Positions 7,449-20,000 of a stretch of DNA of 20,000 nucleotides are shown here, piece by piece. The stretch covers positions 480,405 through 500,404 of the forward strand of contig NC_057752.1 in the NCBI RefSeq assembly GCF_004010195.1, in the 5' to 3' direction. This stretch comes from Chiloscyllium plagiosum (lineage: Eukaryota). Below the pieces are notes generated by a model, which searched no databases, had not been told where the DNA came from, and saw only the letters and a program-made list of their open reading frames with translations. Both the position numbers and the translations under genes were made by a program. Positions within the stretch are counted from its first letter, which is position 1; the number at the start of each line of letters is the position of its first letter.

Positions 7449-7819
7449 TGCCATTCTAAACTCATCCTATCTGCCTGCACGAGGTCTGTATCCCCCCTGT
7501 TCACTGACTGTTGTCTGTTTAAAAGCCTCTTAAACATTGCTGTCATATCTGCTTTTACCACCTCACCTGGCAGCGCATTCCAGGCACCTACCATCTTCTG
7601 TATAAAAAATCCTTTCCTCATACATCTCCTTTAAACTTTTCCCCTCTTCACCTTAAACCTATGTCCCGTAGTATTTGATATTTCCACCCTGGGAAAAAGA
7701 CTCCATCTATCCATCCTATTCATGCATCATTTTATATATGCTTCTATCACATCACCCCTCAGCCTTCAACACTCTAGCAAAAAACAATCCAAGTTTGTCC
7801 AACTTCTCCTAATAGGCTA

Positions 7820-7987
7820 AAGTGAGGACTGCAGATGCTGGAGATCAGAGTCGAGAGTAAGGCGCTGGAAAAACACAGCAGGTCAGGTAGCATCCGAGGA
7901 GCAGGAGAATCAACGTTTCGGGCATAAGCCCTTCATCAGGATTCCTAATGCTGCCTGATCCACTATGCTTTTCCAGCACCACACTCT
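7820..7987 (-). mobile_element. Non-coding PLE terminal-repeat insertion (family A) with inverted 5' segment
   Basis: 7820-7944 is homologous to 527-648, followed by an inverted copy of the tail (~7949-7990). TSD CAACTTCTCCTAATAGGCTA (7800-7819) / CAACTTCTCCTGATGGCTA (7988-8006). Confidence 0.85.
7907..7944 (-). ncRNA. Minimal type I hammerhead ribozyme
   Basis: Reverse complement reads GAATC-CTGATGA-A-GGGC-TTAT-GCCC-GAAA-CG-TT^GATTC, with a perfect 5-bp stem I and GUU triplet. Confidence 0.85.
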
Positions 7988-8425
7988 CAACTTCTCCTGA
8001 TGGCTACTACACTCCGTCTAGGCAATATCCTGGTAATCCTCTTTTGCACTCTCTCCAAAGCCTTCACATCCTTCCCATAGTGTGGTGACCAGAATTGCAC
8101 CTAATGCACCAAATGCGGCCTAACTTAAGTCTTACACAGCTGCAACATTACTTGCCAACGTTTATACTCAATGCCTTGACTGATAAAGGCAAGCATGCTG
8201 TACACCTTCTTTACCACTTTATCCACTTGTGTTGCAACTTTCATGGAGCTAAGGACTTGCAACCCAAGATCCCCCTGTATATCAGTGCTCCTGAGGATCC
8301 TGCCATTTCCTGTTGCATTTGACCTCTCAAGATGCATCACCTCACATTTATCCAGATTAAACTCCATCTGCCATTTTTCCACCCAGCTTTCCAATTGGTC
8401 TATATCCTGCTGTATCCTTTGATAA

Positions 8426-8527
8426 AGTCAGAAGTCACAACACCAGCTTATAGTCCAACAGGTTTATTTGCTCCTTCGTCAGGTAAACTGTCCATCCCAA
8501 TCCAACACCGGTACCTCCACATCATGA
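8426..8527. mobile_element. Short rearranged insertion of second hammerhead-type repeat (family B)
   Basis: Shares acaacaccag.ttatagtccaacaggtttatttg and the reverse-complemented tail tccaacaccggtacctccacatcatga with 14906-15099. Half hammerhead CTGACGA-A-GGAGC on the minus strand (8470-8482). TSD TGTATCCTTTGATAA (8411-8425) / TGTATCCTTTTATAA (8528-8542). Confidence 0.8.
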
Positions 8528-9544: not shown

Positions 9545-10597
9545 AGGCTATTTCTTGGCCCTTCTCGACCTAATTTTTTGTTTAAGTGCTTTTCTGCTTC
9601 CTTTATACTCAAGGGCCTTGTTTGATTTCAGTTTCCTAAACCTTACATATGCTTTCTTTTTCTTTTGACTAACCTTTCAATATCTCGTCAGCCAAGGTTC
9701 CCGAATCTTGCCATTCGTATCTTACCATTCTTATCATTCATCCAAACAGGAACACGCTAGTCCTGAACTCTGATCAACTGACCTTCAAAACGGTCCCACG
9801 TGTCAGATGTGGATTTACCCTCAAACAGCTGCACCCAATCGAATTTCTCATGTCTAATACTGCTGTAATTAGCCTTGCACCAATTTAGCATTTTCACCTG
9901 AAGACCAGTTTAATTCTTATCGATAACTATTTTAAAACACATGGAATTATGATCACTGTTCCCAAAATGCTTCCCCACTGAAACTTCGATCACCTGGCCA
10001 GGCTCATTCCCCCCCACATGTTTGAGTACAGCCCCTTCCCTAGTTGGACTATCTACATATTGTTTCAAGCAACCCTCCTGGATGCACCAAACAAATTCTG
10101 CCCTCCGGCACTAAAACAGTCCCAGTCAATATTGGGGAAGTTAAAATCACCCACAACAACAACCCTGTTTTTGTGAACATCTTTCCATGATCTGTTTACA
10201 TATCTGTTCCACTATCTCAAGCTGGCTATTTGAGCCCTCCAAGATATCCTCTCTTAGTACAGCTATGATGTTCTCCTTAATCAGTAAGCAACTTCCCTCC
10301 CCTTTTACACCCCTCTCCATCTCGCCTGAAACATCTGCACCTGGGAACGTTGAGCTGTCAGTCCTGCCCTTCTCTCAACCCAGTTTCTGTAATGGCTCCC
10401 ACATCATAGTCCCATGTACTAATCCAGGTTCTAAGTTCATTTCCCTTACCTTTTAATACTCCCTATCCTAAAATAAATACATGCCTGTAGTGATTGTAAC
10501 AAAGTCAGCCAAGTGGACCTCATAGAATGAGTTCCCTGATTGATTGGACCTGGTTAACAGCCCCAAAGAGCCCTGACTGACAGATAAAAACACGAAT

Positions 10598-11425
10598 CTT
10601 GCGGTGGGATCCCGTCCGCACTCACCCCAGCCAGGAAAGAATTTCACATTGGCCCCAAGGTCCCGTACTTCCCGTGGGAGCCTGTGCCCCACAACCTGAG
10701 CCGCCTCCGGAATTTTAATTTTGTTTCTTTCAAGGATGTAAAAAGAAGGGCCCTGTATAGACTGCTGCTGCACACCGTCCACCTCTTCTGCCTCATCCAC
10801 CATCCGGACACGCCTTGGCGTGCCCATTTGCCACCGGGCGGTGGGGATTCCCAGTGGAGNNNNNNNNNNNNNNNNNNNNNNNNNNNNNNNNNNNNNNNNN
10901 NNNNNNNNNNNNNNNNNNNNNNNNNNNNNNNNNNNNNNNNNNNNNNNNNNNNNNNNNNNNNNNNNNNNNNNNNNNNNNNNNNNNNNNNNNNNNNNNNNNN
11001 NNNNNNNNNNNNNNNNNNNNNNNNNNNNNNNNNNNNNNNNNNNNNNNNNNNNNNNNNNNNNNNNNNNNNNNNNNNNNNNNNNNNNNNNNNNNNNNNNNNN
11101 NNNNNNNNNNNNNNNNNNNNNNNNNNNNNNNNNNNNNNNNNNNNNNNNNNNNNNNNNNNNTATTTCCCCCTCCAACTCTATTTTGATTTAGTCCCTACCC
11201 TCCCCTTCACTATTTGATCACACAGCATTGCCTTTTGTGAAGGGCACTGCTTGTCACTGGCCACTCGGGTGTTTCCTTTCTTCCTGGTGGTGGAAACTGA
11301 ATAAAGGTTCATGCACCTTGTGTCTTTCACTGTGTCTCACACCTGCACACACACACCATGGGTGCTGGGGGTAAAAATAAGCACTACCAGAGTTAGGCGG
11401 TAGTGTGGGGGTTAAAGAAAAAAAT
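10598..11425 (+). mobile_element. Tx1-clade LINE 3' portion, copy A (contains the gap)
   Basis: ALYRLLLHTVHLFCLIHHPDTPWRAHLPPGGGDSQW is typical of the Tx1 ORF2 region before the C-terminal Zn knuckle. ORF end ISPSNSILI* (11191), 3' UTR and A-rich tail follow. Confidence 0.85.
10860..11160. other. Assembly gap (301 N)
   Basis: Run of n characters. Confidence 1.
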
Positions 11426-11441
11426 ATATAAACAGGAGCGT

Positions 11442-11497
11442 CCCTTTGATGTGAAGGGCACTGCTTGTCACAGGCCACTCGGGTGTTTAAAAAAAAA
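11442..11497 (+). mobile_element. Tx1 3' UTR fragment B with premature poly(A)
   Basis: ccctttgatgtgaagggcactgcttgtcac.ggccactcgggtgttt (also at ~11797-11843) followed by A9. Confidence 0.75.
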
Positions 11498-11512
11498 GAG
11501 AAAAACATGAAT

Positions 11513-11985
11513 CTACCTCCTTGTGGGTCTGCTCCTGGGCCTGGCCAAACTGGTCATAAACAGGTCTAGGCAGCAGGCCGTGGAGGGGGTCATTAGGGCC
11601 GACTGCCTGCCCCTCTTCTGCGGTTACGTCAGAGCCCGGGTGTCTCTGGAGAAGGAGCACGCGGTGGCAACCAACACCCTGGAGTTGTTCAGGGAGAGGT
11701 GGGCGCCGCAGGGAGTGGAGTGCATTATTTCCCCCTCCAACTCGATTTTGATTTAATCCCTGCCCTCCCCTTCACTGTTTGATCACACAAGCATTACCCT
11801 TTGATGTGAAGGGCACTGCTTGTCACTGGCCACTCGGGTGTTTCCTTTCTTCCTGATGGTGGAAACTGAATAAAGGTTCATGCACCTTGTGTCTTTCACT
11901 GTGTCTCACACCTGCACGCACACAACTTGGGTGCTGGGGAAAAAAATAAGCCTAACTGCGGTAGTGAGGGGGTTGAAAAAAAAAA
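11513..11985 (+). mobile_element. Tx1-clade LINE 3' portion, copy C
   Basis: ORF 11523-11756 GLLLGLAKLVINRSRQQ..DCLPLFCGYVRARVSLEKEH..LELFRERW matches the Tx1 ORF2 C-terminus. 3' UTR is similar but not identical to copy A; A10 tail. Confidence 0.88.
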
Positions 11986-12139
11986 CAGGAGTATCAGACA
12001 TCCTGAAAAAAAACATGAATGTCAAGGGTTCTGTTCATTCAAAGCTGGTTCTGAGGGAGCGAGATCAGTGTCAGGGACCTCCATGTGTAAATAAAGGGTA
12101 ACTTGGTGACGGGATACTGGCCTCTGTGGAGTTCTTTCA

Positions 12140-12356
12140 AAGCCAGTCCCACCATATTCATTAAACTGGTCCTGCCTGTCCATCCTATTAGACTTATTTA
12201 ACGTTGACTTTGTCCTCAAATCACTCCACATGCTGACTGACTGCTCTGTCACACCAGTTTAAACCTTCCTGATTGGCACTAGCAAACCTCCCTGCAAGGA
12301 CACTGGAGCCTTTCTCGGTGCAACCGGTCCTTCTTGCACAGATGTCCCACCTGCCC
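12140..12356 (-). mobile_element. Continuation of the 7266-10485 CR1: end of ORF1 (esterase-like) and inter-ORF region
   Basis: Minus strand reads ...SVLAGRFASANQEGLN at ~12258-12305, resembling shark CR1 ORF1 C-termini. Confidence 0.65.
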
Positions 12357-14574: not shown

Positions 14575-15425
14575 GATGGGAATGTGGGAAGGTGATCAGT
14601 AAGTTTGTGAATGACATGAAGATTGGCTGGGTGGTTAATGAGGAAGATGGTCTTAGGTTTCAGGAGGATATTGACATTTTGGTCAGATGGGCAGATCAGT
14701 GGCAGATGGTATTTAACCCAGAAAGGGGTGAGGTAATGCGCTTTGGAAGAAATAACATGATAAGGAAGTACTCAATGAATGGCAGGGCACAAGGAAGCTC
14801 AGAAATAGAAGGATCTTGGGGGGTTTTGTCCATAGATTCCTGAAGGCAGTTGGTTCATAATGTGTTGATGAAGGCATACTAGACACTTACCTTTATCAGT
14901 CATGATGTGGAGGTGCCAGTGTTGGACTGGGGTGGACAAAGTTAAAAATCACACAACACCAGGTTATAGTCCAACAGGTTTATTTGGAAACTCTAGCTTT
15001 CGGAGCGCCGTTCCTTCACCAATGAAGGAGCAGTACTCCGAAAGCTTGTACTTCCAAATAAACCTGTTGGACTATAACCTGGTGTCGTGTGATTTTTAAC
15101 TTTATCAACCATGACATAGATTAAAGGAGCAGGGAGGTTATGTTTCGGCTGTCCAAAACTTTGGTTAGGTCACAGCTAGAGTACTGTGTGCAGTTCTAGT
15201 CACTACACTATAGGGAGGATGTGATTGCACTGGAGCGGGTGCAGAGGAAATTCACCAGGATGTTGCCTGGGTTGGAGCATTTTAGCTCTGAAGAGAGACT
15301 GGATAGGCTTGAGTTGTTTTCTTTGGAGCAGAGAGAGGACTTAATTGAGGTGTATTAGAGTATGAGGGGCATGGGCAGGGTGGATAGGAAACAGTTAAAG
15401 GGTCAATAATAAGAGGGCATAAGGG
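14575..15425 (+). mobile_element. Decayed CR1 RT fragment interrupted by a palindromic insertion
   Basis: ISKFVNDMKIG, WADQWQMVFNP, LEYCVQF, LERVQRKFTRMLPG. Confidence 0.85.
14906..15099. mobile_element. Palindromic insertion of family B repeat with two back-to-back degenerate hammerheads
   Basis: Inverted arms 14938-15018 / 15022-15103. Plus strand: CCAATGA-A-GGAG-CAGTA-CTCC-GAAA-GC-TT. Minus strand: TTGGTGA-A-GGAAC-GGC-GCTCC-GAAA-GC-TA. TSD CTTTATCAGTCATGA (14891-14905) / CTTTATCAACCATGA (15100-15114). Confidence 0.85.
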
Positions 15426-16227: not shown

Positions 16228-17696
16228 AAAAGGGAGACAAGAAAGCAGATGAGGCCTGGAAACACAAGTGGAGCAGTCCATTTGAATTCCCATTGGGTCC
16301 TGAAGCAGGTGGAATATTCATCCATGCCACAGAAAGCTCACAGCCACAAAGAGTCAGGGTGCCTTCCCATACTGGAGGTCCTGCTGCTATATCTCTCTGA
16401 CACTAAATGACCTGGACATTGGCAAGTCAACACTATTCAGGTCCCTGGATTGGTGAAAGTTAGGACAATAGAGGCGTCCAGGCCTAGGTAATGGACAAGA
16501 CAATCATAGTTGCACAATTTACAGATGGCCTGGCCTATAAACAAGGCAAATTAACAGTCAAAATATACCTTTGAATCTGGATCTATTGGCTGCTCACCAA
16601 TGCAGCCTTCCAGCATGTCTTTTTCCTCGCTTTTCATCTGAACCTCCACTTTCATTAATGGGAACATAAATTTCAGCCACATTACCGCAAACAGTCAATC
16701 TACCCCTCCCCTTCCAATTCTGACCCCAAACACTCTAAGCCCTCAAAAGGACCTACATGAGAGGAAAACTTCACATTCCTTCTTTCACTTCAGTCTCTGG
16801 TTTAAGTCCACAGTAGCTCAGCCTCTGAATCAATGCTCCTAATCCATATAGGTCTGTTTGCCTCGCTGAATGTCAGTGGTGTTATTCTCTGATCTTCAAA
16901 CTCTCCTCATTCTCATTGAGTGTACTAAGGTTAATAAATGTATCTGCTGAACATAGGAAGGAAAGACAGGCAACACATATAATCTATGAACAAGTGTTTA
17001 AATAGCTTTGAATGAAGTTGATAGGGACCTAGGAGCCTAAAGCAAGCTTGACATTCAACATATTCAACCAATACACATTTAAGACTATCAGAAATAGGAG
17101 CCATTTGACCCCCAAGCCTGATGTGTCATTCAATAGGATCATGGTTGATCCAACATTCCTCACATCCACTTTCCTGCCCTTTCCCCTGTAACCTACTAAT
17201 CAAAAATCTAACCATCTCAGCCTTAAAAATACACAAGGAGACTCTGCCCCCACAGCTCCCTGTGACAAGGAGTTGCAAAGTCTCTCAAACCTCAGAGAAA
17301 AAAATTCCTCCTTATCTCAGTCTCAAATTTGGCACCCCCTTATTCTGAGACGATGTCCTCTGGTCTTAAGACTCTCACATAAGGAGAAATATCCTCTCAG
17401 CATTTACCCTGTCAAACCCCTTAAGAATCCTACATATTTCAATGAGATCACCTCTCATTCTTCTGAACTCCAGTGAATAGAGTCCCAACCTGTTTAGCCT
17501 TTGCTTATAAGACAATCCCTCCTTAACAGGGATCATCCTAGTGAACCCTCAATTAAATGATGTCTTTCCTTAAATAAGGGATCAAAACTGCTCACAGTAT
17601 TCCAGATGTGGTCTCCCCAGCACCTTGTACAGTTGCAGTAATATTTCCATACTGTTATACTCCAATCCCCTTGAAATAAGGGCCAACATTCCATTA

Positions 17697-17728
17697 CTGA
17701 AGAAGGGCCTGTGCCCGAAACGTCGAAT
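17697..17728 (+). ncRNA. Minimal hammerhead ribozyme lacking its own 5' stem I strand
   Basis: CTGAAGA-A-GGGC-CTGT-GCCC-GAAA-CG-TC^GAAT. Confidence 0.75.
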
Positions 17729-17822
17729 CTCCTGTTCCCTGGATGCTGCCTGACCTGCTGTGCTGTTCCAGCAATAAAGTTTCAACTTTGATCCCCAGCA
17801 TCTGCAGACCTCACTTTCTCCT
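17697..17822 (+). mobile_element. 126-bp PLE terminal-repeat insertion (family A) starting at the hammerhead core
   Basis: Perfect 14-bp TSD CCAACATTCCATTA (17683-17696, 17823-17836). Homologous to the reverse complement of 525-644. Confidence 0.92.
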
Positions 17823-18099: not shown

Positions 18100-18272
18100 G
18101 TAAGTGAGAGAGTGAAAGGTTGTTGGATAGGTTGGATCAGATCAGTCATGATCTTACTGAATGACAGAACAGATCGAGAGAGATTGTGAGGTCTGCAGAT
18201 GCTGGAAATCAGAGTTGAGAGTGTGTTGCTGGAAAAACAGGGGCCAAGTGACCTTACTTCTGCTCCTAATTT
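18100..18272 (+). mobile_element. CR1 3' tail fragment containing a minus-strand PLE tail piece (~18186-18240)
   Basis: gatcagatcagtcatgatctt..tgaatg and cttctgctcctaatt flank gtgaggtctgcagatgctggaaatcagagttgagagtgtgttgctggaaaaacag. Confidence 0.7.
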
Positions 18273-18573: not shown

Positions 18574-19796
18574 AGAGTCATAGAGCAGAAAAACAGACCC
18601 TTCAGTCCATCTTGTTCATGCGGACCAGATATCCTAAATTAATCTGTCCCTATTTGCCAGCATTTAATCCATATCACTGTAAACCCTTGCTGTTCATGTA
18701 CCCATCCAAATGCCTTTTAAATGTTGAAATTGCACCTGCCTCTGGCAGCTCATTCCATACAAGCACCATCCTCTGTGTGAAAAAATTACCCCCAGGTCCT
18801 TTTTAAATCCTTCCCTCTCACCTTAAACCTATGTCCTCTAGCTTTGGACTCCCATACCCTGGGGAACAGACCTTGACTATTCACCCTAACCATACCCCTC
18901 ATGATTTTCTAAACATCTGTAAGGTCACCCCTCAGCCTCCGGTACTACAGGGAAAATAATCCCAGCCTATTCAGCCTCTCTCTATAGCTCAAACCTCCCA
19001 ACCCTGGCAACATCCTTGCAAATCTTTTCTGCACCCTTTCAAGTTTCACAACATCTTCTCTATAGCAGGAAGACCAGAATTGAACGTAGTGTTCCAAAAG
19101 TGGCCTAACTGATGTCCTGTACAGCCGCAACACGATATCCCAACACCTATACTCAATGCACTGACCAATAATGGCAAGCATGCCAAAGGCCTTCTTCACT
19201 ATCCTGTCTACCTGTGATTCCACTTTCAAGGAACTATGAACCTGCACCCCAAGGTCTCTTTGTTTGGCAACACTACCCTCTCATGAAGTGTATAAGTCCT
19301 GTTCTGATTTGCCTTACCAAAATGCAACACCTCATATTTACCAAAATCAAATTCCATCTGCCACTCCTCGGCCCATCTGATCAAGGTCCCGTTGTACCCT
19401 GAGATAACCTTCTTCACTGTCCACTACAACACCAATTTTGGTTTCAACTGAAAACTTACTTATCATACCTCCTATGTTCACATCCAGATCATTCATATAA
19501 ATGACTAAAAACAGTGGACCCAGCACTGATCCTTGCAGCACATTGCTGGTCACAGGCCTCCAGTCATAAAAACAACCTTCTGCCATCACCCTCTGTCTCC
19601 TACATTCAAGCCAACTTTGTATCCAATTGGCTAGCTCTCCCTGGATTCCGTGAGATCTAATATTGCTAACCAGTTTACCATGCCGAACCTTGTTGAGTAC
19701 CTTACTGAAGTCCATATAGACAACTACCACCTGTCTACCTTCATCAATCTTCTTTGTCAATTTTTCAAAACAGTCAAGTTAGTGAGACATGATTTC
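18574..19796 (-). mobile_element. CR1 (HER1-like) RT to 3' tail, same family as 13206-14421
   Basis: [61 protein letters not shown]; tail is the reverse complement of ctctatgactct. Confidence 0.92.
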
Positions 19797-19828
19797 CTGA
19801 AGAAGGGCTAATGCCCGAAACGTCGATT
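19795..19828 (+). ncRNA. Minimal hammerhead ribozyme with weak stem I
   Basis: TC-CTGAAGA-A-GGGC-TAAT-GCCC-GAAA-CG-TC^GA. Confidence 0.75.
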
Positions 19829-19914
19829 CTCCTGTTCCCTAGATGCTGCCTGACCTGCTGCGCTTTTCCAGCAACACATTTCCATCTCTGATCTCCAGCA
19901 TCTGCAGACCTCTC
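19797..19914 (+). mobile_element. PLE terminal-repeat insertion (family A) starting at the hammerhead core
   Basis: Nearly identical in extent and sequence to 17697-17822. Confidence 0.85.
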
Positions 19915-19920
19915 TACAGT

Positions 19921-20000
19921 GTAAAAACAATGACTGCAGATGCTGGAAACTAGATTCTGGATTATTGGTGCTGGAAAAGCACAGCAGTTCAGGCAGCATC
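19921..20000 (-). mobile_element. Related PLE terminal-repeat tail in opposite orientation, running off the window
   Basis: aaaacaatgactgcagatgctggaaac...gtgctggaaaagcacagcagttcaggcagcatc parallels 533-599. Confidence 0.8.

Follow-up and report, generated by a model that had tools for sequence, protein, structure and literature searches.

Target-like segments behind the A-tails of Tx1-like LINE copies in a Chiloscyllium plagiosum LTR-like repeat are probably 3' transductions

How do two insertions of the same LINE come to carry, behind their A-tails, short stretches that resemble the local target site but differ from it? The question is raised by a locus within the 20,000-nt stretch of Chiloscyllium plagiosum DNA analysed here (the window), which we take, from the look of its translations, to be repeat-rich vertebrate DNA with CR1/L2-type, Penelope-type, and SINE-like pieces. 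The original prediction was that the donor elements had been located at the same site in other LTR copies and had been transcribed into it. The locus is built from the following elements:

10486 to 10598, + strand: LTR-like repeat, 5' part, ending in target copy 1 (assigned from the sequence)
10586 to 10599, + strand: target-site duplication copy 1, A5-C-A-C-G-A-A-T-C-T, directly behind the TATA-like GATAAAAA; 13/14 identical to copy 2
10600 to 11424, + strand: Tx1 copy A, comprising a 5'-truncated ORF2 end, the 3' UTR, and an A-tail, with an N gap at 10860-11160
11425 to 11442, + strand: segment A, target-like but foreign, 17-18 nt, with an intact TATAAA
11442 to 11500, + strand: fragment B, 47 nt from within the Tx1 3' UTR, truncated on either side, with an A-rich linker at 11489-11500
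11501 to 11514, + strand: target-site duplication copy 2, which is the 3' flank of A+B and the 5' flank of C; 13/14 identical to copy 1 and 13/14 to copy 3
11513 to 11985, + strand: Tx1 copy C, comprising a 5'-truncated ORF2 end, the 3' UTR, and an A10 tail
11983 to 12005, + strand: segment C, target-like but foreign, 20-23 nt; 11986-12005 has 5-bp inverted ends and forms a small hairpin
12006 to 12020, + strand: second A-run (3 extra A) and target-site duplication copy 3 (duplication 12009-12020)
12009 to 12139, + strand: LTR-like repeat, 3' part, with AATAAA at 12090 and CA at 12138-12139

The host of these insertions has the properties of a solo LTR: it is dispersed and present in high copy number, ends sharply at 12139, is bounded by TG...CA, and contains a poly(A) signal. 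The window includes no internal region of the element. Four of the 24 listed sequencing runs were aligned to 11340-12260 at 80% likeness, namely X1 (organism A), X8 (organism B), X15, and X21, the last being a raw poly(A) single-cell RNA run of which about 2 in 100 reads were taken. Over 12084-12114 of the 3' part the depth of the read and contig alignments reaches 170,000-470,000, and the loose ends behind 12139 are heterogeneous (548 contigs in X1 and 684 in X8, with an agreement of 0.35-0.36). Upstream of about 12079 the depth over the local copy drops from more than 170,000 to a few hundred or thousand, and the local copy is divergent in this part. A TCATT at 12035 is presumably Inr-like. 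The 5' part begins with TG at 10486, TGTAAC at 10495 being an alternative start, and we infer the LTR identity of 10486-10598 from the 3' part together with the shared target duplication. If the start is at 10486, the candidate host duplication is ATGCC/AAGCC (4/5 alike). In three contig runs the loose ends extend about 6 letters beyond 12139, and these letters are complementary to the TGTAAC at 10495. This suggests that most LTR copies extend 6 nt beyond 12139, and the local copy might thus be clipped at its 3' end. The ends of the repeat are accordingly ambiguous within 10481-10500 and 12134-12144.

The target site within this repeat is TATA-like, and the local site used in the comparisons below begins at 12011. 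The three local target copies, of which neighbours are identical at 13 of 14 positions, differ at target position 13, where copies 1 and 2 have C and copy 3 has G. Because the C is common to copies 1 and 2, copy C would have been inserted first, and A+B later into the 5' duplication of copy C.

Judged by the relatedness of their ORF2 remnants, copies A and C are 5'-truncated pieces of a Tx1L-like LINE of the Tx1 clade. The closest named protein is ORF2 of Tx1L from Xenopus laevis (YTX2_XENLA, P0011), to which copy A is 47% identical over 64 aa (aa 1054-1117, E 1.4e-14) and copy C 41.5% over 65 aa (aa 1231-1292, E 1.1e-9), both in a set of 14 proteins. Copy C has ten shark-type homologues, and the named homologues of the insert come from two sharks. 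One shark homologue, P0009, overlaps copy C by 32 aa at 78%, and the best of its four matches is Tx1L ORF2 (E 1.8e-35). The Tx1 copies in the window are devoid of endonuclease and reverse transcriptase domains, to which only the broken gene models P0009 and P0010 provide a link. Pfam searches returned 0 families for three window fragments and one weak RVT_1 match for four homologues. In protein-profile scans with 7 of 11 ORF2 C-terminal sequences, 0/277, 0/14, and 0/54 pattern matches were confirmed, and pattern scans gave 0 loci for segment C in viral contigs, for the Tx1 3' UTR in metagenome contigs, and for the LTR 3' part in prokaryote genomes. Copies A and C are identical at 231 of 246 aligned bases, and fragment B (11442-11488) is identical to 11797-11843 of copy C at 46 of 47 positions. 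The copies show an A-tail, 5' truncation, and target-site duplication, and the two insertions in the window share one LTR site. Among the 22 rows listed for 11513-11930, copy C departs from the majority letter in 20, by eye at least about 5% of its length. Its stretch 11929-11990 represents a rare tail type with a 7-nt gap compared to copy A, across which the depth in X1 falls from about 980,000 to 300. The gap in copy A consists of 301 N, where the spacing of Tx1L predicts about 493 nt, and it could conceal further junctions. The gene model P0005, named mucosal pentraxin-like, starts with about 58 residues of the Tx1 ORF2 C-terminus and is probably a mis-joined annotation.

Both segments are present as predicted. 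The 17-mer at 11426-11442 follows upon A7 (11418-11424) and a single T (11425), and the 23-mer at 11983-12005 is followed by A8 at 12006-12013. The predicted combination of resemblance to and difference from the local site is real, although the likeness is modest (15/23, 11/19, and 6/9, depending on the comparison). In the window, the 9-mer AAACAGGAG occurs only at 11430 and 11983, and not on the - strand. A score of 15 of 23 against the local site, as found for the 23-mer, is attained at 6 of about 40,000 positions in the window. When aligned at the AAAC anchor common to both, segment C agrees with the local site at 11 of the 19 positions that follow. None of 203 background AAAC anchors and 0.39% of all positions attain this value, and transitions account for six of the eight mismatches. 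For segment A, the agreement is 6 of 9 positions behind the anchor (5/203 anchors reach 6) and 6 of 7 ahead of it. The likeness is concentrated in the first 10-11 nt, where segment C matches at 7 of 10 positions. Compared with one another, the segments agree at 7 of 9 positions, and both contain AGGAG where all three local target copies read AYGAA. The eight differences of segment C in 19 positions are too many for a decayed local duplication (P 3e-4 at 10% divergence and 4e-3 at 15%). Segment A with 4/16 differences (P 0.02-0.21) is on its own not beyond drift. An Rfam search with E up to 5 gave one chance match only, and the segments are therefore not pieces of snRNAs, tRNAs, or miRNAs.

The position of the segments is informative as well. 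Copy C is followed by the non-element stretch 11986-12005 and three extra A within a 12-nt duplication, which is the layout of a 3' transduction, and A+B is situated within a 13-14-nt duplication that has the N gap inside. Because each unit of Tx1 plus segment is bracketed by local-type target copies (13/14), the segments came with the insertions. Insertion of the segments separately before the Tx1 copies is ruled out because the 5' flanks are local-type target copies, and ectopic recombination because it would import a foreign LTR flank instead of 20 nt and an A-run. The second A-run, behind segment C, exceeds the duplication by only 3 nt, and there is no AATAAA-type hexamer ahead of it. The idea that A-tail and target together form a poly(A) signal and thus terminate the RNA some 20 nt downstream is not supported: TATAAA and AATATA are found at the junction of A but none at that of C.

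We regard it as probable that the segments arose by 3' transduction of the target, the element being a Tx1-clade LINE with a preference for a TATA-proximal site of the LTR-like family. Transcription of a donor Tx1 copy, located in another, sequence-divergent LTR copy, would have continued beyond the weak 3' end of the element into the target behind it. For copy C, the donor RNA would have ended about 20 nt into the target, and for A+B it would have extended across a sandwiched target duplication and into the following Tx1 piece of a tandem pair. At the new locus, the endonuclease would have nicked at the local T|AAAAAC site, and reverse transcription would have been primed on the terminal A-run as in L1. 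A copy of the foreign target would thereby have been introduced, and the insertion would have left a 12-14-nt duplication of the local site. A, the 17 nt, and B are probably a former donor tandem pair with its sandwiched target duplication, which accounts for segment A, for the start of B, and for its early end in one step. The original prediction had described B as if it was itself targeted. This fits targeting at the donor locus, but B was probably not inserted here, because it would then have a 5' duplication with local letters running into copy C and not the GTC end. Donors at the same site in other LTR copies, the core of the prediction, are consistent with the divergence of the segments, their position inside local duplications, and the depth data described below. 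However, neither a donor nor an uninterrupted variant LTR is found among the joints and loose ends listed: a joint 12005>12034, as possible from a variant LTR, is absent from the 15 joints listed of 396, and a loose end matching a variant LTR from the 24 listed of 1981.

Similar junctions are present in other contigs. Two of the 15 joints listed (11412>11978 and 11421>11975) connect a tail of the common type to at least 21-24 letters fitting 11975/11978 onward, in two contigs of X1 and three of X8; their short sides of 21-24 letters are partly A-run, were aligned at 80% likeness, and were flagged as weak. Position 11425 is crossed with A by 42 contigs in X1 and 38 in X8, and position 11440 with T by 6 and 10 contigs, respectively. 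In addition, 7 of the 12 spacer rows listed of 288 show a tail, an A-run with a short spacer, and another 5'-truncated Tx1 piece, while the other five comprise one 5-letter A-rich spacer and four switches between two reference copies. Two of these seven spacers fit the LTR site by eye. The first matches the local site and both segments at 6 of 9 positions, and the second, which joins at 11445, matches segment A at 5 of 7. The remaining five are unlike the LTR site and are other, mostly TATA-like, A/T-rich sequences, which may hint at further Tx1 targets. The alignments behind all these junctions are short and weak, although the junctions are found in two organisms. The segments had been put forward as independent evidence for specificity, and this is fair insofar as they represent two extra events, but the other tandem spacers do not fit the LTR site. 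The 3' ends of the seven tandem rows all differ (11377, 11388, 11409, 11420, 11827, 11914, and 11924), the end of B being an eighth, and the 5' truncation points cluster at 11757-11764, right after the ORF2 stop.

These rows also bear on a template switch, in which the reverse transcriptase would have started on a 3'-cut Tx1 RNA, giving B, and jumped to an RNA ending in target, giving A and the 17 nt. The segment would still derive from a foreign LTR site, but A and B would never have been neighbours. The junction of segment A and B shares only about 1 nt and B is cut at both ends, as this scenario would have it, and jumps with short junction homology are known for SINEU/Tx1-Mar from the parts of PMC4494074 considered here. 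However, the same succession of tail, spacer, and 5'-truncated piece is found elsewhere with TATA-like spacers of 13-17 nt (the seven rows mentioned), one of these rows joins the tail to 11445, which is 3 nt from the start of B, and premature A-tailed 3' ends like that of B are common in the rows listed. Given that a donor tandem pair covers everything in one step, we consider a template switch unlikely.

The segments could also be the regular 3' end of the elements, and the original prediction named an intrinsic Tx1 terminus absent from uninterrupted LTR copies as the finding that would speak against it. As regards the terminus, this is not what the depth shows. At 11417, 11425, and 11440 the depth is 52029, 3131, and 296 in X1, 95926, 6095, and 2547 in X8, 620, 54, and 8 in X15, and 415, 16, and 5 in X21. 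Thus, in 4/4 runs the depth at 11440 amounts to 0.6-2.7% of the tail depth, these shares being lower bounds because contigs break in A-runs. RNA reads exit as poly(A) at 11416 (89 reads) and 11424 (328 reads). Only 5-6 reads of X21 are present at 11440. Since read-through could be masked by oligo-dT priming on the genome-encoded A-tail and mimicked by intronic copies, X21 is neutral on this point. Over 11340-11960 the 3' UTR reads of X21 are strongly one-stranded (about 500-850 versus 3-34 per 3'-end bin), and the family is therefore transcribed or carried in transcripts. A related alternative is that the segment is the fixed tail of a small Tx1 subfamily, either an old inherited transduction or an intrinsic terminus, which would tell nothing about recent donors. 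The 9-mer common to both copies would fit, as would the similar depth over 11960-11990 and 11991-12021 (301 and 337 in X1, 1320 and 1755 in X8), which is well above the 5-45 of single listed contigs and could be produced by sister copies. But at most a few percent of the tail depth runs into the segment, A and C differ in tail type, segment length, and letters (7/9 alike), and tails of the common type are also joined to letters resembling segment C. A fixed tail is thus quite improbable, and transduction from foreign target sites is still the reading to be preferred.

The second half of segment C invites yet another explanation. Its last 9 nt agree with the LTR at 4 of 9 positions, but at 8 of 9, allowing for one gap, with the first half of the segment read as its reverse complement. 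The perfect 5-bp inverted ends are located exactly at the segment borders, which is the case for 28 of 19,660 window 20-mers (0.14%), and the fold of -5.2 kcal/mol is reached by 2.7% of 3,000 sampled 20-mers. Therefore, read-through might have covered only about 11 nt of the target, followed by fold-back synthesis or a stop at the base of the hairpin, and only the first half would be LTR-derived. However, the end of segment C is in register with the local TCTG and its last 3 nt match, the LTR variant might itself contain the inverted repeat, and the statistic was chosen after the fold had been seen, so that we regard fold-back as very improbable. The hairpin is absent from the local site and ends, in register, 2-4 nt before the Inr-like TCATT, and the whole 3' end at 11860-12013 folds no better than shuffled sequences (z -0.40). 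An assembly chimera of reads from several Tx1-LTR loci is hardly credible: the 301-N scaffold gap is situated 265 nt upstream of segment A, the repeats are of very high copy number, and the examined stretch is not covered in full by any of the 24 contig pieces listed, but a mis-join would switch to a foreign LTR flank and remain there whereas local target copies bracket both units, and 30/30 bins have depth in X1, X8, and X15.

The closest parallel to a transduced target is provided by Drosophila R1. In the parts of Stage and Eickbush (2009, PMC2718515) compared here, insertions carrying downstream 28S sequence are described, read-through templates with possible annealing to the target are inferred, and tandem arrays are separated by a 14-bp duplication. 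Like R1, the element at this locus is an apparently sequence-specific LINE with duplications of about 14 bp, tandem arrays split by duplicated target, and co-inserted downstream target. The two differ in that R1 belongs to the R1 clade, targets 28S rDNA, and has nearly invariant 3' junctions according to the same excerpts (PMC2718515), whereas the element here is of the Tx1 clade, its LTR-like target is divergent, its 3' ends bear A-tails and vary, and an on-target site has received a copy of foreign target. The likeness to R1 that had been pointed out thus holds for the footprint, the co-inserted downstream target and the tandem copies split by a duplication (PMC2718515, in part), but not for the uniform 3' junctions. 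As far as covered by the available sections of PMC7265360, 3' transduction has been reported for L1, R7Ag, and R1Bm. In these cases, too, a flank is copied between the element tail and a second A-run, but at the present locus what was transduced is a variant of the target itself, with a length of only 17-23 nt. Flanking target RNA raises the efficiency of R2Ol (PMC6530143, sections compared), and RNA with downstream target serves as template in R1Bm and R2Ol as it would here (PMC6530143 and PMC7265360, both in part). The target RNA of R1Bm and R2Ol pairs with the nicked DNA, with a gain in efficiency or precision (same sections of PMC6530143 and PMC7265360), whereas here it was copied.

With respect to the choice of target, the crocodilian families Tx1-8_Crp and Tx1-4_AMi prefer LTR retrotransposons, and tandem insertions with a duplication between them are described (Kojima 2015, PMC4494074, main-text parts). 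The present element resembles these families as well as Tx1-Mar and SINEU-3 in using mobile elements as targets and in its tandem insertions with sandwiched duplication (same parts of PMC4494074). For crocodilian Tx1 5' extensions are described, while neither a TATA-proximal site nor target 3' transduction was found in the main-text parts of PMC4494074 that were compared. In these parts, Kojima's rule for a target-specific Tx1 family demands that more than 20% of the flanks are of one type (PMC4494074). Tx1L also inserts into another transposon, Tx1D (PMC4494074, in part), but this target is a piggyBac-type DNA transposon and not an LTR.

The locus probably represents a genuine 3' transduction of the target by a Tx1 family with a preference for an LTR, the principle of which is not new. 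In the accessible portions of the open-licence PMC and bioRxiv literature, no report of target transduction by a Tx1 element was found. The borrowed segments are lineage tags that tie an insertion to the LTR subfamily of its donor. With the full assembly, chains of donors and daughters would be traceable and the tolerance of the endonuclease for target divergence, here 8/19 positions, would be measurable. The segments also point to the existence of Tx1 RNAs with downstream target. Such RNAs are the precondition for priming of the R1/R2 type, a question thereby testable in a vertebrate Tx1 family.

A further proposal, that the read-through RNA aids targeting, is unsupported by the two insertions, because in 2/2 events the segment was copied and an A-run directly adjoins the local site. 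Seven contiguous bases were available for pairing in register, compared to 5 for an A-tail, yet reverse transcription began at the downstream A-run. Events primed in register would leave no such trace. The footprint is already known from insect R1, and a targeting role for the extra RNA does not follow from it. It is a doubtful but conceivable scenario that Tx1 read-through RNAs ending in the LTR target, at the base of a small hairpin before the LTR start site, routinely pair with the nicked LTR and sharpen targeting across divergent subfamilies as in R1/R2. The copied segments would then represent failures in which donor and recipient were too unlike to pair. If true, a vertebrate Tx1 element would aim at the core promoter of another retrotransposon by means of an RNA-assisted targeting loop.

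Several further repeats were noted in the window. An inverted pair of 88-nt arms at 14931-15110, 88% complementary and 4 nt apart, is MITE-like, and a 35-nt piece of its arm is found at 8436-8470. The stretch 520-1930 on the - strand, which we take to be a Penelope-like fragment, has inverted ends of 110 nt (584-693 and 1812-1921, 95% complementary), and short inverted pairs related to these ends are present at 7814-7993, 17692-17822, 18180-18239, and 19794-19980.
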